Below are positions 873-54,258 of a stretch of 64,000 nucleotides of DNA, piece by piece (within the stretch, counting starts at the first letter, position 1; every line of letters begins with the position of its first letter). The stretch covers positions 17,875 to 81,874 of the forward strand of contig JAUSEX010000045.1 of NCBI GenBank assembly GCA_030649895.1, in the 5' to 3' direction. A program made the position numbers and the translations under genes. This DNA comes from Candidatus Omnitrophota bacterium. Lineage in GTDB: Bacteria > Omnitrophota > Gorgyraeia > Gorgyraeales > Gorgyraeaceae. The notes beneath the pieces are model-generated. The model worked only from the letters and a program-made list of their open reading frames with translations. It searched no databases and had not been told where the DNA came from.

Positions 873-884
873 ATTCACCTACCT

Positions 885-930
885 ATCCGACTCCGTAAGT
901 CGCCCTTTACGGCGACTCACGGAGTCGGAT
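885..930. repeat. Family C hairpin repeat (ATCCGACTCCGTAAGTCGCC-loop-GGCGACTCACGGAGTCGGAT). Intergenic; probably also the terminator of the IHF-like gene
   Basis: 20-bp inverted arms with one mismatch. The same arms recur at 53355..53400, 40972..41021 and 55959..56005. Confidence 0.8.
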
Positions 931-941
931 AAGGTTATCTA

Positions 942-1226: not shown

Positions 1227-1333
1227 AACAAACCTCCTTGGTTTTTTATATCTATCGTAAATACAATGGGTAGTGTAACAGGTTGCAACAGTATTGTCAA
1301 ATAAAAAATGCCAACTTGTCAAGCACATTTAGT

Positions 1334-1404
1334 TAATAGGGACAGCGACCATTTTATAATATAAGATTTCTGTTTTAAAATAAAATGGTCGCTGTCCCTA
1401 TTAA
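1334..1404. repeat. Family B hairpin repeat (AATAGGGACAGCGACCATTTTA...TAAAATGGTCGCTGTCCCTATT). Intergenic, dnaE 3' end
   Basis: Perfect 22-24-bp inverted arms. Copies at 12373..12439 and, in-frame inside aroA, at 54028..54084. Confidence 0.85.
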
Positions 1405-12372: not shown

Positions 12373-12439
12373 AAAATAGGGACAGCGACCTATTTTCCTA
12401 TTTAATGCTAGCTAGAAAATAGGTCGCTGTCCCTATTTT
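12373..12439. repeat. Family B hairpin repeat, intergenic (tonB 3' end / upstream of the groES promoter). Likely terminator
   Basis: AAAATAGGGACAGCGACCTATTTT ... AAAATAGGTCGCTGTCCCTATTTT, perfect 24-bp arms. Confidence 0.85.
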
Positions 12440-15414: not shown

Positions 15415-15479
15415 GCTGCACCCTGGTTTACTTGGCCCTTTGCCGTCCATCGCGGCAAAAAAATCTATCAAATATATCG

Positions 15480-15636
15480 TAAGGTTTTCTGGCTCAAGGC
15501 ATGGTTCGACAAGCTCACCACTTTCCTACTTTCCGCGCCTTCTCGTCCGCCCAAGGCGAACAATGGCTTTTTGCAGATTTCGTTCCTTTTACAGCAGCGG
15601 GGCTGCGCTAAATTTACATCAGCTTCCCTTAGACAA
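15480..15636 (-). ncRNA. Cobalamin (AdoCbl) riboswitch
   Basis: The minus-strand sense reads ...AAGGGAAGCUGAUGUAAAUU..CGCAGCCCCGCUGCUGUAAAAGG...GCC...GAGCCAGAAAACCU. This matches the conserved cobalamin riboswitch core (AAGGGAA..GGUG.AA.UCC..GC.G.CCCGC.ACUGUAA..GG and the B12-box ...AGCCAG...ACCUGCC). Context is btuB/btuFCD/cobO. Confidence 0.6.
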
Positions 15637-15645
15637 TATAAAATA

Positions 15646-16250
15646 TTATTCGGTTTTATTTTTTATACAACAATTATTGCTTCGTGTCAATCTTTTATTT
15701 TTAATAATCTTGTACGCGGCCCAAACTAATATACCGAAACCCAATATCAGGAGAGTCGGCTTTGTATATTTCATAAGGCTAAGACCGAACATAGATAAGA
15801 TAAATATCCTGGGAATAACTCCAATAACAGTATATATAACAAATTGAGGCAATGGTATTTTTACAATACCTGCCGCTATTGAAAAAACCTTAAACGGCAC
15901 AACTGGAACAATCCTCCCTATTAAAACGCTGAAAGGACCGTATTTTTTTGCAAACGATTCTGCCCTTTCAATATGATGCGGTTTTATAAAAACAAACTGC
16001 CATATTTAATCATGAGCGGCTTAGCTCCATATTTTCCTATTAGGTACCCTATTATGCCGCCAAACGTTGCTCCAAGAGAACCGAATATCACAATCGACGC
16101 TACAGAAATACCGGCTGCAGCAGCTCCTATTATAATAATCTCTGAGGGTATAGGTACAATGCTTGATTCCAGCAACATGCCTAAAAATACGCCAAAATCT
16201 CCAAAATGATTTATAAACTCCAATATTTTAGTTTGCAGCACGTGTTCCAT
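15646..16250 (-). pseudogene. DedA/TVP38-family membrane protein, interrupted by a single-base frameshift in a T5 run near 15975
   Basis: ORF 15984..16250 is the N-terminal half (...GYLIGKYGAKPLMIKYGSLFL*). ORF 15646..15900 is the C-terminal half. Reading +1 from the TTTTT run gives a continuous ...IKPHHIERAESFAKKYGPFSVLIGRIVPVVPFKVFSIAAG, the DedA core. Either a pseudogene or a homopolymer sequencing error. Confidence 0.6.
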
Positions 16251-18864: not shown

Positions 18865-19473
18865 CTAATATTCTATCCCTTTTCTCGCATTTACCTGCTG
18901 CCTTAAAGGGTGTTTTTTGTCCACCATTATGGTCACGTAATCCGCGAATTTTTCCAGCTCAGAGATATCGCCCCTGCCGGTCAGCACAAGCTCTATATCT
19001 CCCGGGGCATTTTTAACCAAATCCAAAAATTCTTTTTTTCCGCTAAACCCCTGGTCTATAACATTTATGACCTCATCCAATATAATCATGTCGTATTTGC
19101 CGCCAAAAATAGCCCTCTTTGCATCTGCCATAGCTTTTCCGATAGATTTCTTTATTTTTTCTTTGGTTCTCGACTCGGCCTTCGGCCTCGCTCGAACAAT
19201 ATTCTTCAAGCGAGTCTCTCGGCTTCGCTCGGGATAAACTCCGCGAATAGAGAAGACTTCTTTCTTTTCCATAAACATCGGATGCTCTTGCTCATATTTT
19301 ACCACTTTAATACTCTTTATTTTCTTCGCTGATATTTCTTCTCCACAGACTAACTTTCTGGGTTTTAAAAATTGAAATATAACGACCTTGAGCCCCTGGC
19401 CGCTTGCGCGCATAGCAAGGCCGAAACTCGAAGTAGTCTTCCCTTTGCCATTTCCAGTATAAATATGTATCAT
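18865..19473 (-). CDS. cobO: Cob(I)yrinic acid a,c-diamide / cob(I)alamin adenosyltransferase (CobO/BtuR), carrying a ~35-aa family A insertion
   Basis: MIHIYTGNGKGKTTSSFGLAMRASGQG..VVIFQFLK and C-terminal ...DYVTIMVDKKHPLRQQVNARKGIEY match BtuR. The internal segment EVFSIRGVYPERSRETRLKNIVRARPKAESRTKEKI is the translation of a family A repeat (19167..19255). Confidence 0.85.
   Translation of the reverse strand: MIHIYTGNGKGKTTSSFGLAMRASGQGLKVVIFQFLKPRKLVCGEEISAKKIKSIKVVKYEQEHPMFMEKKEVFSIRGVYPERSRETRLKNIVRARPKAESRTKEKIKKSIGKAMADAKRAIFGGKYDMIILDEVINVIDQGFSGKKEFLDLVKNAPGDIELVLTGRGDISELEKFADYVTIMVDKKHPLRQQVNARKGIEY
19167..19255. repeat. Family A repeat element inserted in-frame inside cobO
   Basis: TTCTCGACTCGGCCTTCGGCCTCGCTCGAACAATATTCTTCAAGCGAG..., within ORF 18865..19473. 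Confidence 0.8.
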
Positions 19474-37693: not shown

Positions 37694-37737
37694 GCCCACC
37701 TACGGGGTGAGCCATATGGCTCACCCCGTAGGTGGGC
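37694..37737. repeat. 44-bp perfect palindrome GCCCACCTACGGGGTGAGCCATATGGCTCACCCCGTAGGTGGGC
   Basis: Perfect dyad centred on CATATG with a partial third arm (TTAGGTGGGCAAGC). Sits between the pilC 3' end and the pilin promoter, with no adjacent U tract. Confidence 0.9.
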
Positions 37738-40711: not shown

Positions 40712-42469
40712 TTATTCATCCGCCACTGTTACGCGCAAAACCTCTTCGAGGCTCGTAAGGCCTTCTAAAACTTTTGCAATACCGTCTTCGCGCAATGTCC
40801 TCATGCCTTCGTCCCTGGCAATCTTTTTCAATTCATTTTCCCTGGCACGCTTTAAAACAAGATTTCTTATTGCAGGCGTAAGCGCAAGTACCTCGCATAT
40901 ACCTACCCTGCCTGCATATCCCGTATGTAGGCAAGCGCTGCATCCTTTCGCCCTGTAAAAGGATCCAACCTTTCCGACTCCGTGAGTCGCCGCATTCGCG
41001 CTGCGACCCGCGGAGCCGGAAAGGTTAATGCCAAGCCTTGAACTTAAAATATCGCTTGGTTTGTATTCCTCTCTGCATTTGGCGCATAATTTCCGGATAA
41101 GCCTTTGCGCGACTATTGCAATAAGGGATGATGTTATTAAAAAAGGTTCGCAGCCCATATTTATAAGCCGCACCACTGTACCAGGTGCGGTAGTCGTGTG
41201 AAGAGTGCTAAGTACAAGATGGCCTGTTAACGCGGACTTTATCGCTATATCCACTGTATCGAAATCCCTTATCTCTCCTATCATTATCACGTCAGGATCC
41301 TGCCTGAGAATCGACCTGAGCGCACTGGCAAATGTAAGGCCTGCCTCTGCCCTGGCTGTAACCTGATTAATACCCTCTATCTGGTATTCAATGGGATCCT
41401 CGACTGTTATAAGATTTTTTTCAGGGGAATAGACATGTCTCATTAGAGAATAAAGAGTAGTAGTTTTCCCGCTTCCCGTAGGGCCAGTGACAAGTATCAT
41501 GCCATGAGGCCTGGACGCGCATTTTTTTAATTTATCCAGGGAGTCCCCGCTGAAGCCCAGCTTATCAATATCAAGCATAGCCTGAGATTTATCCAGCACC
41601 CTCAATGCTACTTTTTCGCCTTTACTCGAGGGGAGAATGCTTACCCTGAAATCTACATTGTTATTATTTATTTTCAACCTGAACCTGCCGTCCTGCGGAA
41701 GGCGGCGTTCGGCAATGTTTAATTCAGACATGACCTTTATCCTGGAAACAATAGATTCATGCGTATTTTTCGGCAGGGATTCCGCTTCCTTTAATACGCC
41801 GTCTACCCTGTACCTGATGCGCACTGAATTTTCCATAGGCTCTACCAGGATATCGCTGGACCTGGCTTTTATCCCGTTTTCAAGTATCATATTTGTCAAC
41901 TTTACAACAGGCGCCTCTTCCACCAGCTTAAACAACCTCTCTGAATCTACTTTTTCTTCAGTCCCGCCTATCTGTATGAACTCTATGTCCTGCGTCTTCA
42001 TATCTTCCATTAATTCTTCTATGGCTTCATGGGTATTCTCTCCATAATACTGGTCTATTGCGTCCTGAACCTCTTTTTGAAAAGCTATAATAGTGCCTAT
42101 GTCAAGCTTGGTAATAGCCCTTATATCATCAATCGCAAAAATATTCAACGGATCCGACATTGCAATGGTAAGCATATTGCCAACCCTTGAGACAGGTATT
42201 ATCTGGTATTTATTCGCCACTTCGCGAGGGATAAGCTTTATGAGTTCCGGGTCTATTTTAAAACGCGCCAGGGATATAGGCGGGATACCGAGGCCCTGGC
42301 TCAAAACCGACATAAGGTCTTTTTCTGTTATAAAGCCTGCTTGTATGAGGATGCTTCTTAAAGAGCCGCCCTTTGCTTTCTGGATCTTCAACGCCTCGTC
42401 CAGCTGGGCTTTTGAAATAGTCTTATCGCTTATCAACAATTCTATCAGACGCTCTTTTAATGAATACAT
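40712..42469 (-). CDS. PilB / GspE family ATPase (paralog 2), with a family C repeat insertion in the zinc-finger loop
   Basis: 585 aa, Walker A VTGPTGSGKTTTLYS. CAKC...CSAC are spaced 45 aa apart against about 29 aa in typical PilB. The extra LSGSAGRSANAATHGVGKVGS is encoded by hairpin 40972..41021. Confidence 0.9.
   Translation of the reverse strand: MYSLKERLIELLISDKTISKAQLDEALKIQKAKGGSLRSILIQAGFITEKDLMSVLSQGLGIPPISLARFKIDPELIKLIPREVANKYQIIPVSRVGNMLTIAMSDPLNIFAIDDIRAITKLDIGTIIAFQKEVQDAIDQYYGENTHEAIEELMEDMKTQDIEFIQIGGTEEKVDSERLFKLVEEAPVVKLTNMILENGIKARSSDILVEPMENSVRIRYRVDGVLKEAESLPKNTHESIVSRIKVMSELNIAERRLPQDGRFRLKINNNNVDFRVSILPSSKGEKVALRVLDKSQAMLDIDKLGFSGDSLDKLKKCASRPHGMILVTGPTGSGKTTTLYSLMRHVYSPEKNLITVEDPIEYQIEGINQVTARAEAGLTFASALRSILRQDPDVIMIGEIRDFDTVDIAIKSALTGHLVLSTLHTTTAPGTVVRLINMGCEPFLITSSLIAIVAQRLIRKLCAKCREEYKPSDILSSRLGINLSGSAGRSANAATHGVGKVGSFYRAKGCSACLHTGYAGRVGICEVLALTPAIRNLVLKRARENELKKIARDEGMRTLREDGIAKVLEGLTSLEEVLRVTVADE
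40972..41021. repeat. Family C hairpin repeat inserted in-frame inside pilB2
   Basis: TTCCGACTCCGTGAGTCGCC-GCATTCGCGCT-GCGACCCGCGGAGCCGGAA; first arm identical to 885..904 except for 2 nt. Confidence 0.75.
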
Positions 42470-45689: not shown

Positions 45690-47327
45690 TTATTTTATAA
45701 ACCCCCATGGCAAGCTTTCGCCCGCCTCTTTTTTCTTTAAATAGATCTCCGGTCCTACGCCTGCCTCCTGAAAAGCCTGAACCCACAGATTATAATTAAA
45801 ATGTTCCGTCCAAGCCTGAAGCCGCAAACCTTTCTCCCACGCCTTCAGTATAACCTTGCCTATATTTTTATCGCCCCTGGCCAGCGCCGCCTCGATCCTA
45901 GCTATTTCCGGACTATGGAAACTCGCTCTCACCCTTGAGCCTTGAGCCCTGAGCCTTGAGCCCAAGCGATTTTGTTTCTCTTTAAGATTTTCCAGGCTCT
46001 CCATCCCTTCCTTCTCAAAATCAGAATACGGCTTCGGTATAAAAGGGCTCACGCTTATATTCACGTTTTTTATTTTCCCAGCCAGATCTATTATCGCGTC
46101 AAGATCTTCATCGGTCTCTCCCGGAAGCCCTATCATAAAATAGAGTTTTACTTTCCTCCATCCGGAGCTTAAAGCAGCTCTGGACTTTTCCAGAATTTCC
46201 GCGTCTGTTATTTTTTTATTTAAGGCATGCCTGAGGCGCTCACTCCCCGCTTCAGGCGCAAATGTAAGCCCTGCCCTTTTCAGCGTATCCATGCCGCTGT
46301 ATTCTTCAAATGTCCCCACTCTTAAAGACGGCAGAGACACCTTTACCCCGAGCGGCTTAAATTTCTCTTCAAGTTTTTTGGCGAGCTCCTCGATGTGCGG
46401 GTAATCGCCTGACGAAAGGGACAGTAAAGATAACTCTTCGTATCCTGTACTTTTTACAGATTCCTCCGCTATTTCCATGATCCTTTTTACGGAACGGATT
46501 CTTAGCGGATTAAAAATTTTACACGCCTGGCAGAATTTACATTGATGCGGACATCCGCGCATTATCTCTATGCCGATCCTGTCGTGGATAATCTGTATAT
46601 ACGGGACTACTATATCCGCAGGAAAATAAGCGGCGTCCAGATCCTTGACAATGCGTTTTGTTATGGCCGCAGGTCTCATCCCGATCGACGATCGGGACAC
46701 CAATCCCGATCGTCGATCGGGATTGGTAAAACTTGGAACATAAACGCCTTGTATCTCTGAAAGTTTTTTTAGCACAACTTCTCTTCTGCGATTCACCCTT
46801 AACCCTTCACCCTTCACCGCATTTACTATTTCTAATATCGCTTCCTCCGCCTCTCCGATCACAAAGGCATCTATGAAATCTGCCAGCGGCTCAGGATTGA
46901 ATGCGCACGGGCCTCCGGCTATTACAATAGGGCTGTCGTCTTCTCTTTCCGCGGAATATATCGGCACCCCTCCCAGGTCCAGGATATTAAGAACATCCAA
47001 ATAATTCATTTCATATTGAAGAGAAAAACCAATAATATCAAACTCCTTCAAAGCGTGAGCTGATTCAAGAGAAGAGAGCTTTTCCTTTCTATCTCTCAAT
47101 CTTTTCTCCATATCCATCCACAGGGCAAAAACCCTTTCGCATATTACATCTTTTTTCCCGTTCAATATGCCGTATAAAATCCTCATGCCGAGATGACTCA
47201 TGCCTATTTCATAAATATCCGGAAACGCCAGCGCTACTTTCAAAACGGTCTCGCCCCATTCTTTATGGACAGCGTTCCACTCGCTATTTATATATCTCGC
47301 CGGTCTTAATATATCTGAATCTACCAT
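45690..47327 (-). CDS. B12-binding-domain radical SAM protein (TIGR03960-like, partner family of DUF2344)
   Basis: 545 aa, radical SAM cluster motif CPHQCKFC. Contains an in-frame family D palindrome (46676..46728, encoding PDRRSGLVSRSSIG) and a GAGCC tandem repeat (45933..45965, encoding AQGSRLRAQGSRVRA). Confidence 0.8.
   Translation of the reverse strand: MVDSDILRPARYINSEWNAVHKEWGETVLKVALAFPDIYEIGMSHLGMRILYGILNGKKDVICERVFALWMDMEKRLRDRKEKLSSLESAHALKEFDIIGFSLQYEMNYLDVLNILDLGGVPIYSAEREDDSPIVIAGGPCAFNPEPLADFIDAFVIGEAEEAILEIVNAVKGEGLRVNRRREVVLKKLSEIQGVYVPSFTNPDRRSGLVSRSSIGMRPAAITKRIVKDLDAAYFPADIVVPYIQIIHDRIGIEIMRGCPHQCKFCQACKIFNPLRIRSVKRIMEIAEESVKSTGYEELSLLSLSSGDYPHIEELAKKLEEKFKPLGVKVSLPSLRVGTFEEYSGMDTLKRAGLTFAPEAGSERLRHALNKKITDAEILEKSRAALSSGWRKVKLYFMIGLPGETDEDLDAIIDLAGKIKNVNISVSPFIPKPYSDFEKEGMESLENLKEKQNRLGSRLRAQGSRVRASFHSPEIARIEAALARGDKNIGKVILKAWEKGLRLQAWTEHFNYNLWVQAFQEAGVGPEIYLKKKEAGESLPWGFIK
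45933..45965. repeat. Tandem oligonucleotide repeat (CTTGAGCC)n, in-frame within the radical SAM gene
   Basis: CCCTTGAGCCTTGAGCCCTGAGCCTTGAGCCC. The same motif recurs at 53086..53114, 53590..53620 and 60686..60712. Confidence 0.8.
46676..46728. repeat. Family D compound palindrome (TCCCGATCGACGATCGGGA x2, inverted), in-frame in the radical SAM gene
   Basis: ATCCCGATCGACGATCGGGACACCAATCCCGATCGTCGATCGGGATTGG. Confidence 0.8.
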
Positions 47328-50557: not shown

Positions 50558-50747
50558 TTCTCGACTCGGCCCGCATAACAGGTCCTCATGACCGCTCGAA
50601 GAATATTAGTGTTCGAGCGGACATATTGGCTATGCGCGCAAACCCGGCCGAGAACTCGTATGTATTTTTAATATTACTTTACCGCTAGAAAAATATTAGT
50701 GTTCGAGCGGACATGTTGGCTATGCGCGTAAACCCAGTCGAGAACTC
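50558..50747. repeat. Family A repeat with a ~95-bp second half tandemly duplicated (two direct copies, ~6 mismatches)
   Basis: ...CTCATGACCGCTCGAAGAATATTAGTGTTCGAGCGGACATATTGGCTATGCGCGCAAACCCGGCCGAGAACTCGTATGTATTTTTAATATTAC..., repeated from 50690 onward. Confidence 0.85.
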
Positions 50748-50763
50748 GTATGTATTTTTAATA

Positions 50764-51540
50764 TTACCTTACCACCAGCACTTCTTCCAGTTCTCTAACA
50801 TCAACTTCGGGTTTTATAACTGCGTTCAAATAAAGCCCGCTGGAATCCTGCTCGATAGACACCACTTCCCCTATCAACAAGCCCTTTTCGAAAACTCCAT
50901 AAAGCCCTGACGTAATAACCTTGTCGCCTTTTTTTGCGCCACATCCAAGATCCAGGTATTTCATAATAAGGCCCGCCCTCATATTTCCAGAAACAGCGCC
51001 TTCATCCCTTGTGCTTTCGATAATCCCGCTAAAGGTAGAATCATAATCTGTGACAAGAAGAACCCTGGATACCCCCCATCCTGTTTCCATAACCCTTCCC
51101 GCCAGGCCGCTTCCGCTTATCACTACCATGCCCTTTTCAATCTTATCTTTTCTGCCTCTGTCAATCACAACGGTATCATTCAAACCGGAAGGGTCCCTCG
51201 CTATAACCAAAGCAGGTACGAATTTACGCTTGTCCGATTCTTTAAAATCGAGAAGCTTTTTAAGCCTTTCATTCTCCAGCCTGGCCTCTCTTGAATTCAG
51301 CAGTTCTGTCTCAAGACTGGCTAGAGTTTCTTTAAGAATTTTATTTTCCGCGCGGATTTCTCTGAAATAGGCGACATCCCTCAGCGCATAGACAGAGCCT
51401 GAGATCAGTTTTAAAGGAACTCTTAAGATATCAAGGGTTTTGACTCGAAATTCAGAAGATAAAATACTGGAGAGCAGCGCTATAGCAGCTATAAAAATCA
51501 GTACTGCTATTATAGGGAGGTTTTTTTCTGGTTTTATCAC
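50764..51540 (-). CDS. mreC: Rod shape-determining protein MreC
   Basis: N-terminal TM helix, coiled coil and C-terminal beta domains. The start codon is uncertain (GTG at 51540 or TTG at 51579). Confidence 0.8.
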   Translation of the reverse strand: MIKPEKNLPIIAVLIFIAAIALLSSILSSEFRVKTLDILRVPLKLISGSVYALRDVAYFREIRAENKILKETLASLETELLNSREARLENERLKKLLDFKESDKRKFVPALVIARDPSGLNDTVVIDRGRKDKIEKGMVVISGSGLAGRVMETGWGVSRVLLVTDYDSTFSGIIESTRDEGAVSGNMRAGLIMKYLDLGCGAKKGDKVITSGLYGVFEKGLLIGEVVSIEQDSSGLYLNAVIKPEVDVRELEEVLVVR

Positions 51541-52860: not shown

Positions 52861-54258
52861 TTAAGAAGAACCTGCCAAAGACAGGCGATGAAGCAATCTC
52901 TCGAAACCCGGGAAAGATTTATTTATACAATCCAGGCCTGTTACCCTGACGTTGCCTTTTATGCCAAGGCCCGCTATCAGCATGCTCATTGCAGTCCTGT
53001 GATCCCCAAAGCTGGATACCTTTGCGCTATGTAACGGCATGCCGCCGTTAATAACGATATGCTCGCGTTCTGGCTCCGGGCCAGAGGCCCTGCCCTTTAG
53101 CCTTTCGTCTTCAGCCTTGAGCCCAATATCCGCGCCAATCTTGCGCAAATTCGTAACCATAGATTTTATCCTGTCAGTCTCTTTAACGCGCAGCTCTTCT
53201 ATGCCTTTTATGACAGTCTTTCCTTTTGCAAAACAAGCAGCAACCATTATTACGGGTATTTCATCTATAGCGCGGACAACTTCTTTTGAAGATATTGTAA
53301 CGCCTCTCAACTTGCTTGGTTTAATCATAATATCGCCCATAAGCTCGCTGACCCATCCGACTCCGTAAGTCGCCGAAGCTGGCGACTCGCGGAGTCGGAT
53401 ATCTGCGCCCATCTTTTTTAATATATCTAAGATCCCGGTCCTGCTAGGGTTCAGTCCTACATTCCTGATGGTTATCTTTGTGTCCAGCAGAATACACCCA
53501 GCAACAATAAAAAATGCAGCGCTGGAAATATCCCCGGGAATACCAATCGCGCCCGGACTCTTTAATTCTACCGGCCCTTTTAAACTAATCCTTGAGCCTT
53601 TAGCCTTTAGCCTGCAGCCAAACATTTTTAACATCCGTTCGGTATGGTCCCTGGATTTCTCAGGCTCGCTGACGCAGGTAACGCCGTCTGCGTAAAGCCC
53701 TGCCAATAAAATGCACGATTTTACCTGCGCGCTTGCAATTGTGGATTTATATTGAATCGCCTTTAATCTTCCCCCTCGGATCTTTAAAGGCGGATAAATT
53801 TCTTGCTGCCTTGACCTTTGGCCATTTATTGCCGCGCCCATTTTAACAAGCGGCTCTACAATGCGCTTCATAGGCCTGGCTGACAAAGATTTATCCCCTG
53901 TCAAAACAACTTCAAAATCCTGGCCCGCTAAAATACCTGGGAGCACCCTCATGGTTGTCCCGGAATTACCTAAATATAACGGCCTGGACGGCTTCTTTAA
54001 CCCACGCATACCTACGCCATGCACTATAAAATAGGGACAGCGACCATTTTTCCCATGTTTAAAAATGGTCGCTGTCCCTATTTTTCCTATTTTTATTTTT
54101 ACACCCATAGCCTGAAACGCCTCTATGGTTCGCTTGATATCCTCTGCCATTAATAGGTTTTTTATACGGGTAGCGCCTTTTGATATAGATGCGAGCATTA
54201 CAGCGCGATGAGATATTGATTTATCGGAAGGGACTATTATTTCAACGGCTTTCAACAA
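52861..54258 (-). CDS. aroA: 3-phosphoshikimate 1-carboxyvinyltransferase (EPSP synthase, class II-like), carrying three in-frame repeat insertions
   Basis: 465 aa; PGDKSISHR-like start, LGNSGTTMR, RPMKRI, KVKETDRI, FGDHRTAM. Inserts relative to B. subtilis/S. aureus EPSPS (alignment from memory): family B hairpin 54028..54084 (KIGKIGTATIFKHGKNGRCPYFI), family C hairpin 53355..53400 (RLRESPASATYGVGWVSE), GAGCC tandem 53086..53114 (GLKAEDERLKGRASGPEPE). Confidence 0.9.
   Translation of the reverse strand: MLKAVEIIVPSDKSISHRAVMLASISKGATRIKNLLMAEDIKRTIEAFQAMGVKIKIGKIGTATIFKHGKNGRCPYFIVHGVGMRGLKKPSRPLYLGNSGTTMRVLPGILAGQDFEVVLTGDKSLSARPMKRIVEPLVKMGAAINGQRSRQQEIYPPLKIRGGRLKAIQYKSTIASAQVKSCILLAGLYADGVTCVSEPEKSRDHTERMLKMFGCRLKAKGSRISLKGPVELKSPGAIGIPGDISSAAFFIVAGCILLDTKITIRNVGLNPSRTGILDILKKMGADIRLRESPASATYGVGWVSELMGDIMIKPSKLRGVTISSKEVVRAIDEIPVIMVAACFAKGKTVIKGIEELRVKETDRIKSMVTNLRKIGADIGLKAEDERLKGRASGPEPEREHIVINGGMPLHSAKVSSFGDHRTAMSMLIAGLGIKGNVRVTGLDCINKSFPGFERLLHRLSLAGSS
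53355..53400. repeat. Family C hairpin repeat, in-frame within aroA
   Basis: ATCCGACTCCGTAAGTCGCC-GAAGCT-GGCGACTCGCGGAGTCGGAT; arm 20/20 identical to the intergenic copy at 885..904. Confidence 0.9.
54028..54084. repeat. Family B hairpin repeat, in-frame within aroA
   Basis: AAAATAGGGACAGCGACCATTTTT-CCCATGTTT-AAAAATGGTCGCTGTCCCTATTTT. Confidence 0.9.

Follow-up and report, generated by a model that had tools for sequence, protein, structure and literature searches.

The aroA gene of this Omnitrophota bacterium raises the question of whether an essential enzyme can take up mobile palindromic repeats in frame and go on working. A sequence-only reading of the 64,000-nt stretch analysed here (the window) had proposed that it does, by analogy with the palindromic elements (RPEs) of Rickettsia, and had placed three different small repeats inside the gene. 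The features considered below are collected in Table 1. We hold it probable, at about 0.8, that this aroA was colonised by dispersed palindromic hairpins of families linked to Y1/HUH (RAYT-type) transposases, and that the hairpins are translated as tolerated loops.

Table 1. Coordinates in the window of aroA, its inserts and the related repeats
Feature	Position	Strand	Remark
aroA, predicted class II-like EPSP synthase, 465 aa	52861..54258	-	host of three inserts
Family B hairpin in aroA, 57 nt = codons 59-77 (KIGTATIFKHGKNGRCPYF)	54028..54084	-	REP-like, RAYT-type transposase family
Tandem duplication of 9 nt (+KIG), in frame, bordering hairpin B on its 5′ side	54077..54094	-	TRF, CCTATTTTT x2
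Family C hairpin in aroA, 46 nt, encodes I287-G301 (IRLRESPASATYGVG)	53355..53400	-	compact REPIN-like doublet
Third insert in aroA, G379-H400, eroded hairpin with heptamer-array arms (family H)	53059..53124	-	TRF, period 7
Second heptamer tract in aroA (RLKAKGSR)	53590..53613	-	TRF, 3.4 copies, 94% match
Family B, intergenic, directly downstream of dnaE stop	1333..1404	.	arm match
Family B, intergenic, downstream of TonB-like gene, upstream of groES	12373..12439	.	arm match
Family C, intergenic, 11 nt downstream of HU gene stop	884..931	.	arm match
Family C in frame in pilB, 60 nt = codons 482-501 (...SANAATHGVGKVG...)	40967..41026	-	arm match
Family H heptamer array in frame in radical-SAM gene 45690..47327 (RLRAQGSRVRA)	45933..45962	-	TRF, 4.3 copies, 91% match
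Further palindromic repeat in frame in radical-SAM gene 45690..47327	46678..46723	-	20-nt arms, 100% complementary
Family E repeat, in frame within ORF 18865..19473 (FSIRGVYPERSRETRLKNIVRARPKAES)	19171..19254	-	E motif at 19190-19211

The aroA product matched the Pfam family EPSP_synthase with E=2.5e-108 (362.9 bits), and its best PDB sequence matches were the Coxiella, Acinetobacter and Bacillus EPSPS (E ~1e-99). PDB sequences of the class II side (Coxiella, Acinetobacter, Bacillus, S. pneumoniae and CP4) gave E values of 1e-99 to 1e-73, as against 1e-39 for E. coli. An AF2 model of the protein had a pLDDT of 87.5, and Foldseek aligned it with solved EPSPS structures at target-normalised TM scores of 0.85-0.91, the highest (0.91) with 3rmt. 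The catalytic residues K13, S14, R18, N98, G100, R104, R128, Q178, D332, E333, K359, E360, R363, H420, R421 and K447 were all present, at positions which we take to have the roles of their E. coli counterparts; in an alignment of 39 syntenic AroA sequences the catalytic and substrate-binding residues were invariant or at least 90% conserved. By these comparisons the protein is a predicted class II-like EPSP synthase, and the earlier description of an open frame with every catalytic motif held. So did the length excess of about 37 aa: orthologues free of inserts had 414-428 aa, a difference of 37-51 aa. The same protein, with no residue changed, is NCBI MDO8603407.1 of a Candidatus Omnitrophota MAG. 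At about residues 147-152 there was a fourth extra stretch (QRSRQQ), which had no repeat origin.

Hairpin B of aroA was confirmed, with 24-nt arms of 100% complementarity around a 9-nt loop and a predicted RNA folding energy of -37.7 kcal/mol (z=-10.1 vs shuffles). It amounted to exactly 19 codons and lay in the AF2 model between strands 54-58 and 76-82, with pLDDT below 50 at residues 61-72. The KIG duplication at its edge was absent from a 98%-identical strain, L135, the indel corresponding to window positions 54086-54094. Hairpin C was likewise found as described (20-nt arms, 90% complementary; dG -39.2, z=-6.9), without the outer AACCT arms of other C copies, and was placed by the model between strands 286-291 and 307-313, with pLDDT below 50 at 295-301. 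It covered 15 aa, yet the loop was only 7 aa longer net than in insert-free orthologues, so that some native residues gave way to the hairpin or were lost, and hairpin C is not a clean insertion. The statement that the inserts map exactly onto repeat copies thus stood for B and not for C.

The third insert, of 16 aa at about 53059-53124, had been read as a GAGCC tandem at 53086-53114. This was rejected, as TRF found a periodicity of 7 nt, with the heptamer tract proper at 53094-53123 (unit CCTTTAG, 4.3 copies, 73% match, weak). In this strain the fold was no better than that of shuffles (z=+0.4), whereas L135 carried (CTSAAGG)x4 in near-perfect form, with a predicted fold of -32.5 kcal/mol vs -20.5 kcal/mol here. 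The insert took 7 of the 24 substitutions between the two strains (p=7e-5); codon changes within it were 5 non-synonymous vs 1 synonymous, and outside it 3 non-synonymous vs 14 synonymous. The latter ratio indicated that aroA is functional, and this comparison of codon changes showed AroA to be under purifying selection despite its inserts. The third insert is an older, decaying heptamer-array hairpin, evolving almost neutrally and by multi-nucleotide events. The heptamer motif matched at 14 places in the window against 1.0 expected. The second heptamer tract of aroA aligned with a segment of native length and added nothing relative to orthologues. STRR are heptanucleotide tandem repeats of cyanobacteria, and family H resembles them as dispersed arrays of 7-nt units; it differs in its inverted array pairs, which form hairpins and are translated in frame, and its unit sequence is unrelated.

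All three inserts were located at the tips of beta-hairpins, whose length varies across Omnitrophota AroA. They were the only low-pLDDT parts of the model, each between two strands, as the structural check suggested by the sequence-only reading had anticipated; judged from the open frames, they are probably translated into loops of low model confidence. Each tolerant site was a tip that comes, in the repeated folding units, after the ‘MG(A/V)xI’ strand. Peptides reading across the insert junctions include GVKIKIGKIGTATIF and ADIRLRESPASATYGVGW. Most of the 39 orthologues were without the inserts, in keeping with the proposed lineage-specificity. Inserts present in orthologues were also hairpins in the DNA, five of them in the L003 aroA, and identical repeat peptides occupied different sites in different orthologues. 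Recognisable repeat peptides were found in 35 of 120 AroA homologues; such inserts, which had been called striking for a single gene, are thus common within Omnitrophota AroA. No close relative offered an empty site: the sole close one, L135 at 98% identity, had all three inserts, so that the insertions cannot be dated, and the case for insertion comes from orthologues no more than 70% identical.

Elsewhere in the window, B arms matched at 7 places (0.02 expected) and C arms at 5 (0.04 expected), among them the intergenic copies that had been reported. The arms had been called identical. This was true of a 15-nt core of B and of one C arm; inner stems and loops differed. The C copy in pilB fell between the two Cys pairs of a C-terminal zinc motif (dG -49.4, z -7.7), in a protein that matches Pfam T2SSE with 455 bits and exceeds Geobacter PilB by about 13 aa at this point. 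The palindrome of the radical-SAM gene lay between the N-terminal and core domains (dG -42.4, z -7.4). The family E peptide, from an ORF read by eye as a putative CobA/BtuR-like adenosyltransferase, recurred in AroA orthologues. A separate repeat family at 37694-37737 contained GTAGG. Rfam searched over the whole window at the gathering threshold gave no family at any hairpin and only a cobalamin riboswitch.

Family B comprised at least 127 copies in 109 stretches from 43 assemblies, many per assembly. About 97% of them were intergenic and only about 3-4 of 127 lay within long ORFs; in-frame copies were found also in a MutL linker and a PMT glycosyltransferase. Copy lengths were uniform modulo 3 (42/45/40), and a B element ‘coding by design’ was rejected on this ground: the genome-wide prediction that copies are multiples of three failed for B, and its in-frame copies are survivors of selection. 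Family C, a doublet of 42-60 nt with two open frames (peptides RLRESP...GDSRSR and SDSVSR...ATHGVGQ), was in frame within genes at no fewer than 7 of 11 unique loci, the hosts being AlaRS, KsgA, DprA, a GltD-like protein, radical-SAM enzymes, a NuoM-like protein and PilB. Its peptides may extend surface beta-hairpins or linkers, and loops of core enzymes may regularly gain variation through repeat insertion. In each family one of the three frames was closed by stops, and every in-gene copy kept the frame without stops. A 14-nt B arm was identical in MAGs labelled as at least 8 phyla. A generic search for hairpins with a perfect stem of 12 or more, flanked on each side by 80 open codons, missed known copies and was dropped as a census. 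The B and C hairpin patterns had 0 matches in 2.9 million viral contigs, and phage was rejected as their vehicle. A literature search with the B arm sequence returned nothing relevant, only an unrelated human-genetics match, and one on palindromic repeats of Omnitrophota likewise found nothing relevant.

Some features of these copies would suit hairpins selected as nucleic-acid elements of aroA (attenuator, terminator, mRNA-stability or gyrase/IHF-type), an explanation that we consider improbable. Compensatory differences keep the stems perfect from family to family; intergenic B copies follow directly after stop codons (63 of 129 start within 60 nt of a stop) and are themselves followed by T-runs; and the B and C arms of aroA had 0 substitutions in 88 nt between the two strains. 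This last figure, however, is not significant against 1.1 expected, and a terminator scan did not flag hairpin B, whose 9-nt loop is above the limit of that scan, so that no terminator claim is made. The occurrence of both families at tolerant linkers of many unrelated genes fits tolerance, and the third insert is decaying.

Colonisation by transposase-linked repeats is supported by the genes that the arms enclose. B arms bracketed Y1/HUH genes in L107, L092/L108, L020, L127/128 and L129-132, and co-varying variant arms did so in L133/134; the bracketed genes represented six lineages for B and one for C. The L107 ORF scored 53 bits and the L114 ORF, with a C hairpin on each side, 27.5 bits against Y1_Tnp (Pfam cut-off 23). 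Their best NCBIfam match was REP_Tyr_transpos in both cases, below its 80-bit equivalog cut-off (72.3 bits, E=3.7e-20 for L107; 57.3 bits, E=1.6e-15 for L114). HUH motifs (NHVHFIV and THLHLAL) and tyrosine motifs (YSQYF and YTRYF) were visible in the L107 and L114 proteins, respectively. Two RAYT paralogues were present on one 52.8-kb contig, which speaks against a single copy per genome; by eye the L020 and L092 RAYT genes follow seemingly the same upstream gene, which would favour vertical inheritance. In the window itself tblastn gave no RAYT gene (best E 0.058, judged noise), and for this genome the link is therefore by arm homology only. Read from their sequences, the C arms contain the self-palindromic CGACTC-N3-GAGTCG, and the B arm TAGGGACAGCGACC is not self-complementary, which puts B closer to the TIR type; neither arm end carries a GTAG or CGTC tag, the marks of the two REP superfamilies (PMC3733652), so that B departs from canonical REPs in both respects. 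On this evidence B and C are putative REP/REPIN-like families tied to RAYT-type Y1/HUH transposases of related genomes.

These data also bear on an origin as classical MITEs, in which a DDE transposase would act on terminal inverted repeats and a target-site duplication would be left behind. Family B does resemble two such repeats joined by a short variable spacer, and a TA...TA flank is indistinguishable from a TA duplication. Against this, the 129 B copies had no excess of direct flanking repeats beyond a permuted control (k=2-6), the sole transposase between B arms, in six lineages, was of the Y1/HUH type, and 264 of 275 arms were paired within 70 nt, with no ~1-kb DDE element found. The MITE reading was rejected for want of a target-site duplication, and we rate its chance as quite small.

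Under the preferred reading, short palindromic repeats dispersed through the genome would have entered aroA on three occasions. B and C would be non-autonomous, with arms that act as the ends recognised by Y1/HUH (RAYT-type, IS200-like) transposases whose genes lie elsewhere in such genomes. By analogy with IS200/IS605 and RAYT systems, the hairpins would move as single-stranded DNA, leave no target duplication and be able to land anywhere; within an essential gene, only those copies would survive whose length is a multiple of three, which read in either of the two frames free of stops and which sit where an insertion is tolerated. The RPE-like tolerance originally proposed is supported by the lineage-specificity of the inserts, their loop sites and the transposase-bracketing arms.

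Bypass or removal of the inserts is very unlikely, and so is the reading of aroA as a pseudogene or as an artefact of assembly. Hairpins as stable as -38 to -39 kcal/mol within the aroA mRNA might suggest that the inserts go untranslated, but all in-gene copies are in frame and free of stops, though one frame in three is closed and excision would let two-thirds break frame. The substitution pattern of the scaffold and the recovery of aroA in identical or near-identical form from three independent assemblies also speak against these readings. To ordinary lineage-specific expansion, with the hairpin likeness coincidental or gene fragments copied to spacers, we give almost no credence: loops at the insert sites do vary in all orthologues, repeat-free stretches such as QRSRQQ included, but the arms are identical over 15-24 nt where 0.02-0.04 matches were expected, the many B copies are nearly all intergenic, and the arms bracket transposase genes.

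RPEs measure about 100-150 bp, occur in Rickettsia only (Ogata et al. 2000, 2002 via PMC10969869, PMC3733652) and have no dedicated transposase identified (PMC10969869, PMC3733652). The Omnitrophota elements resemble them in that several palindrome families lie in frame in unrelated housekeeping genes, with a recurrent peptide, fold-compatible sites and intergenic copies as well. They differ in size (46-62 nt, outside the RPE range) and in host, since they belong to free-living or uncultured Omnitrophota and not to the Rickettsia set of RPE-1 to RPE-10. Their arms, moreover, lie on either side of Y1/HUH transposase genes, and the two kinds of element are probably unrelated in sequence. Opitutus terrae belongs, like the Omnitrophota, to the PVC group. 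It is in this species that intragenic REPs are most numerous (PMC3733652). Such GTAG- or CGTC-tagged REPs are mostly 3′ of genes, a minority lying in ORFs as dimers that encode 20-30 aa (Di Nocera et al. 2013, PMC3733652); certain genes carry two, and DNA-repair genes and tRNA synthetases are among the hosts (PMC3733652). With intragenic REPs already published (PMC3733652), the aroA case becomes less exceptional. The likeness extends to short hairpins mostly 3′ of genes, a translated minority and hosts such as tRNA synthetases. In contrast, B and C are without these tags, C is mostly intragenic and not a minority, and one Omnitrophota gene has up to five hairpins at structurally equivalent positions.

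Canonical REPINs are about 100 bp long and almost exclusively extragenic (Bertels & Rainey 2011; 10.1101/2021.07.10.451892), and their RAYTs are single-copy, vertically inherited genes of Proteobacteria (10.1101/2021.07.10.451892). Shared with the present families are two inverted conserved arms, a less conserved spacer, many copies, an arm-flanked Y1/HUH gene and co-variation of arm and lineage. The Omnitrophota elements are half the size, family C is mainly inside genes, two RAYT paralogues occur on one contig, and the 14-nt B arm is found under many phylum labels. Family B also fits the TIRYT/TIRtron, a tyrosine transposase gene between inverted non-palindromic arms, with repeats built from these (Di Nocera et al. 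2013, PMC3733652); TIR repeat families, however, are moderately abundant in few genomes (Di Nocera et al. 2013, PMC3733652), whereas B is abundant and widespread. The phenomenon is thus known, from intragenic REPs and RPEs, and new are the phylum, the density, a mostly intragenic family and B arms across phylum labels. As a tentative extension, the REPIN-RAYT systems of Omnitrophota, and of uncultured phyla found together with them, may depart from the class in two ways: protein-coding genes may be the main habitat of family C, and the B arm may be either extraordinarily conserved or spread horizontally as a REP-RAYT pair, against the view of REPINs as lineage-specific and vertically inherited.

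On the preferred reading, selfish DNA in coding genes is no peculiarity of Rickettsia and is frequent in a large uncultured phylum, and the intragenic hairpins can be tied to a Y1/HUH (RAYT-like) transposase, a link that RPE work never achieved. EPSPS is a herbicide target, and an enzyme accepting up to five inserts of 15-30 aa at equivalent tips may guide the search for its insertion-tolerant loops. Repeat-encoded peptides may inflate protein length and give spurious similarity between unrelated proteins, which concerns annotation and phylogenetics. The spread of one REP core across phyla, if true, would challenge the vertical-inheritance model of REPIN-RAYT systems.

The inserts in the window's EPSP synthase gene, aroA, were supported as intragenic REP/REPIN-type hairpins of RAYT-like (REP-associated tyrosine transposase) enzymes. 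Among solved structures, AroA was closest to the EPSPS of Coxiella, Acinetobacter, Bacillus and S. pneumoniae, with E values around 1e-99 to 1e-90, and more distant from that of E. coli (E=1e-39); by sequence, the protein is thus a class II-like EPSP synthase. Compared with Coxiella AroA, residues were added in four places (13, 5, 7 and 16 aa). Alignment of 39 orthologues confirmed the sequence-only reading that every catalytic motif was kept, and the hairpins B and C that it had placed in the gene and also between genes were recovered (Table). Hairpin B had 24-nt arms of perfect complementarity and a 9-nt loop (-37.7 kcal/mol, z=-10.1), and hairpin C folded at -39.2 kcal/mol (z=-6.9). The B arm occurred seven times in the window against a chance expectation of 0.02, and the C arm five times against 0.04. 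A further C copy lay between two Cys pairs in the C-terminal zinc motif of PilB.

Features of the window (window coordinates)
Feature	Position	Strand	Remarks
aroA, EPSP synthase	52861..54258	-	465 aa; Pfam EPSP_synthase full length, E=2.5e-108
Hairpin B in aroA	54028-54084	-	exactly 57 nt, starting at a codon boundary; codons 59-77, KIGTATIFKHGKNGRCPYF
Hairpin C in aroA	53355-53400	-	20-nt arms; encodes I287-G301
Third aroA insert	about 53059-53124		G379-H400
Terminator-like hairpin	52870-52886	-	small; over final aroA codons
Promoter-like site for mreB	52845-52817		strong, 11/12 matches; after the terminator-like hairpin at aroA end
Intergenic B copies	1333-1404; 12373-12439		directly 3′ of stop codon
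Intergenic C copy	884-931		directly 3′ of stop codon
C hairpin in pilB (40712..42469, -)	40967-41026		in frame, exactly 20 codons
Radical-SAM gene	45690-47327	-	three translated repeats: one hairpin, two heptamer arrays
Its hairpin	46678-46723	-	perfect 20-nt arms
Its heptamer arrays	45933-45962; 46792-46818	-	
GTAGG-core palindrome	37694-37737		perfect, 22+22 nt
Family-E stretch	59820-60720		900 bp, intergenic, dense in units CTTCTCGAC...GCTCGAAGAATATT
GIY-YIG nuclease-domain ORF	60144..60416	-	90 aa
CobA/BtuR-like adenosyltransferase ORF (by eye)	18865-19473	-	in-frame family-E peptide at 19171-19254, FSIRGVYPERSRETRLKNIVRARPKAES
Tandem repeat	50591-50773		90-bp unit, two copies, 92% match, with family-E motif; between two genes
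Cobalamin riboswitch	15462-15669	-	Rfam RF00174, 80 bits
Gly-rich ORF	60720-63872	-	1,050 aa, long Gly-rich runs; C-terminal half lectin/LamG-type repeats by eye

The nearest AroA homologues were all from Candidatus Omnitrophota, with identities of only 60-72% and lengths of 399-559 aa. Their loci were syntenic (sigma factor, anti-sigma, spoVG, coiled-coil gene, aroA, mreB and mreC), indicating that the aligned homologues were orthologues. Among the 39 aligned, almost all length variation fell in five loops, each after an 'MG(A/V)xI' strand. Insert-free orthologues (414-428 aa) had short turns at these sites, as lineage-specific inserts predict; relative to the protein P0010 (414 aa), the window AroA had 16, 6, 7 and 16 more residues at sites 1, 2, 4 and 5. 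Recognisable peptides were common to different orthologues at differing sites in this alignment, namely FSTR..SKNIVRA, VIASEAKQS / RSNL..DCFA, PLTLTLSPKGRGKGEG, R(L/H)R(E/V)SP..ATHGVGQV, LKAQGSRLKA / AFSLQP and AGLNLPY. At least one repeat peptide was present in 35 of 120 AroA homologues, and mean length rose from 427 aa with no repeat family to 482 aa with three. In DNA the orthologue inserts were hairpins (five in aroA of L003, a locus from another genome), and related hairpins were also intergenic on the same contigs. A GTAGG-core palindrome family was seen in the window and in another such locus, L004 (5168-5219, 7977-8028, 8782-8831 and 11116-11172); one L004 copy overlapped the stop codon of aroA, and the C-terminal end of the L004 protein is therefore repeat-encoded.

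An AlphaFold2 model of the window AroA, built on the 39-orthologue alignment, was confident (pLDDT 87.5, pTM 0.86) and resembled solved EPSPS structures, with target-normalised TM values reaching 0.91. pLDDT below 50 was found only at residues 61-72, 295-301 and 383-387, coinciding with the three inserts, and in the last few C-terminal residues. Each insert was modelled between two beta-strands (54-58/76-82, 286-291/307-313 and 377-381/400-405), in agreement with the loop positions expected.

That three small repeats lie in frame in aroA proved real, but the third had been misdescribed: the GAGCC tandem tract reported at 53086..53114 was absent, and TRF showed instead a weak 7-nt periodicity at 53094-53123, within a 16-aa insert. 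The heptamer motif was dispersed in the window (14 matches vs 1.0 expected), with further tracts including another inside aroA, a pair in a radical-SAM gene and one between genes. The third insert of the window strain folded no better than shuffles (z=+0.4). In a second strain (L135, 98% identical), aroA carried all three inserts, the third as a near-perfect CTCAAGG CTGAAGG CTCAAGG CTGAAGG followed by a partial complement, with a fold of -32.5 kcal/mol vs -20.5 in the window. Comparison of the two sequences thus identifies the third insert as a hairpin whose arms are heptamer arrays and which is eroding in the window's strain.

A protein of the same sequence as the window AroA, NCBI MDO8603407.1, comes from a Candidatus Omnitrophota MAG. 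Between the window aroA and that of L135 there were 24 substitutions and a single 9-nt indel: in the window only, the 5′ edge of hairpin B is duplicated in tandem, adding KIG. No substitution fell in the B and C arms (1.1 expected, not significant), and the third insert had 7 in 66 nt vs 17 in 1,320 nt elsewhere (odds ratio 9.1, p=7e-5). Codon changes outside the third insert were 3 non-synonymous vs 14 synonymous, indicating that purifying selection acts on a functional enzyme; inside it they were 5 vs 1 (p=0.009), indicating that constraint is relaxed there.

Scanning for the two 14-nt B arms, with one genome per species, gave at least 109 stretches holding at least 127 hairpins from at least 43 assemblies. 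By the submitters' own labels, the 43 listed were 18 Omnitrophota, 6 Nitrospirota, 5 Planctomycetes, 3 Elusimicrobia, 2 Firestonebacteria, one each of Deltaproteobacteria, Aminicenantales, Aerophobetes and Actinomycetota, and 5 unlabelled. Copies had the form AAA-TAGGGACAGCGACC-(A/T-rich inner stem, variable loop)-GGTCGCTGTCCCTA-TTT, with an exact outer 14-nt arm pair and genome-specific inner stems. Among the matches listed, the median palindrome span was 62 nt, about half of the copies began no more than 60 nt downstream of a long ORF's stop codon, and no target-site duplication was found. Lengths modulo 3 were uniform (42/45/40 for the 127 copies listed), contrary to the suggestion that copies might be in frame genome-wide. 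Only about 3-4 of the matches listed lay inside long open frames, e.g. in a MutL interdomain linker, within a glycosyltransferase of the PMT family and, towards the C-terminus, in an open frame of 2,666 codons that extended past the locus end. Neither B nor C hairpins had a match in 2.9 million viral contigs.

B arms were paired within 70 nt in 264 of 275 cases, and the unpaired exceptions pointed to an arm-bracketed gene. As seen in locus L107, a 230-aa ORF with HVH and YSQYF (tyrosine) motifs had two B arms upstream and a full B hairpin overlapping its stop; it matched Pfam Y1_Tnp (53 bits), and its best NCBIfam family was REP-associated tyrosine transposase (72.3 bits, below the cut-off of 80). 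B arms bracketed the transposase gene likewise in L092 and L108, and L020 held a decayed copy. This protein family had at least 7,852 homologues, the named ones being Omnitrophota. Three further members (55-60% identity) carried a tandem set of 1-4 exact B arms some 57 nt before the gene and 1-2 directly after the stop, and one lineage had co-varying variant arms on both sides. In four samples (L129-L132), an identical RAYT-like protein (gene 1501-2175) was preceded by 1, 2, 4 and 4 exact B arms, with one degenerate arm besides in two of them, suggesting ongoing arm gain or loss. Two different RAYT-like proteins (P0159 and P0180) were encoded on one 52.8-kb contig; the usual account is of a single RAYT copy per genome (Bertels & Rainey). 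No RAYT gene was found within the 64-kb window, so the transposase link for the source genome rests on arm identity.

Family C was found at 13 loci in a single metagenome scan. One of these, L114, encoded a 211-aa Y1 transposase with a C hairpin on each side (Pfam Y1_Tnp, 27.5 bits; best NCBIfam match REP_Tyr_transpos, 57.3 bits), 28% identical to the B-linked protein. Unlike B copies, those of C mostly lay in frame within genuine genes, as in at least 7 of 11 unique loci, the hosts including AlaRS, RsmA/KsgA, DprA (interdomain linker), a GltD-like oxidoreductase, two radical-SAM enzymes and a NuoM/Mrp-type membrane subunit. In both families a stop in the first arm closes one of three frames, and in-gene copies were read in the two others. 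A further family, E, had 37 matches in the window vs 0.96 expected; its units surround the GIY-YIG ORF, which may reflect a nuclease-repeat association, and the peptide of the adenosyltransferase-like ORF was also found in several AroA orthologues.

The repeats are dispersed, form hairpins and, in AroA, occupy loops in frame. Y1/HUH transposase genes are flanked by arms of B and C, the repeats show no target duplication, and purifying selection acts on the host enzyme. By analogy with IS200/IS605 and RAYT enzymes, the hairpins would move in single-stranded form and insert widely, and selection would purge intragenic copies unless they were in frame, outside the closed frame and in tolerant turns or linkers. 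As modelled, AroA would offer several structurally equivalent tolerant turns, one per unit in five repeated folding units, which would account for multiple insertions in one gene.

The proposal of in-frame palindromic mobile elements in an essential enzyme was upheld by the AroA-loop hairpins and by arms flanking Y1/HUH genes elsewhere. The phenomenon itself is already known: RPEs (Rickettsia palindromic elements) are the classic instance of palindromes translated within genes (PMC10969869), and Di Nocera et al. (2013) showed that genes of several species contain short REPs and REP dimers, with 20-30 aa encoded, most numerous in Opitutus terrae and R. conorii, with some genes hit twice and hosts including repair genes and tRNA synthetases (PMC3733652). 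No paper connecting Omnitrophota with such repeats was found in a literature search. The B and C families differ from known REPs in having no GTAG/CGTC tags, and represent new families in a new phylum; the Omnitrophota elements are also small and dense (three families in the window aroA, five hairpins in one orthologue). In the description of Bertels & Rainey (preprint 10.1101/2021.07.10.451892), REPINs lie almost exclusively outside genes, and RAYTs occur in single copy and pass on vertically, whereas family C was mainly intragenic, which is likewise new. So is the apparent multi-phylum range of one 14-nt B arm, judging from arm matches.
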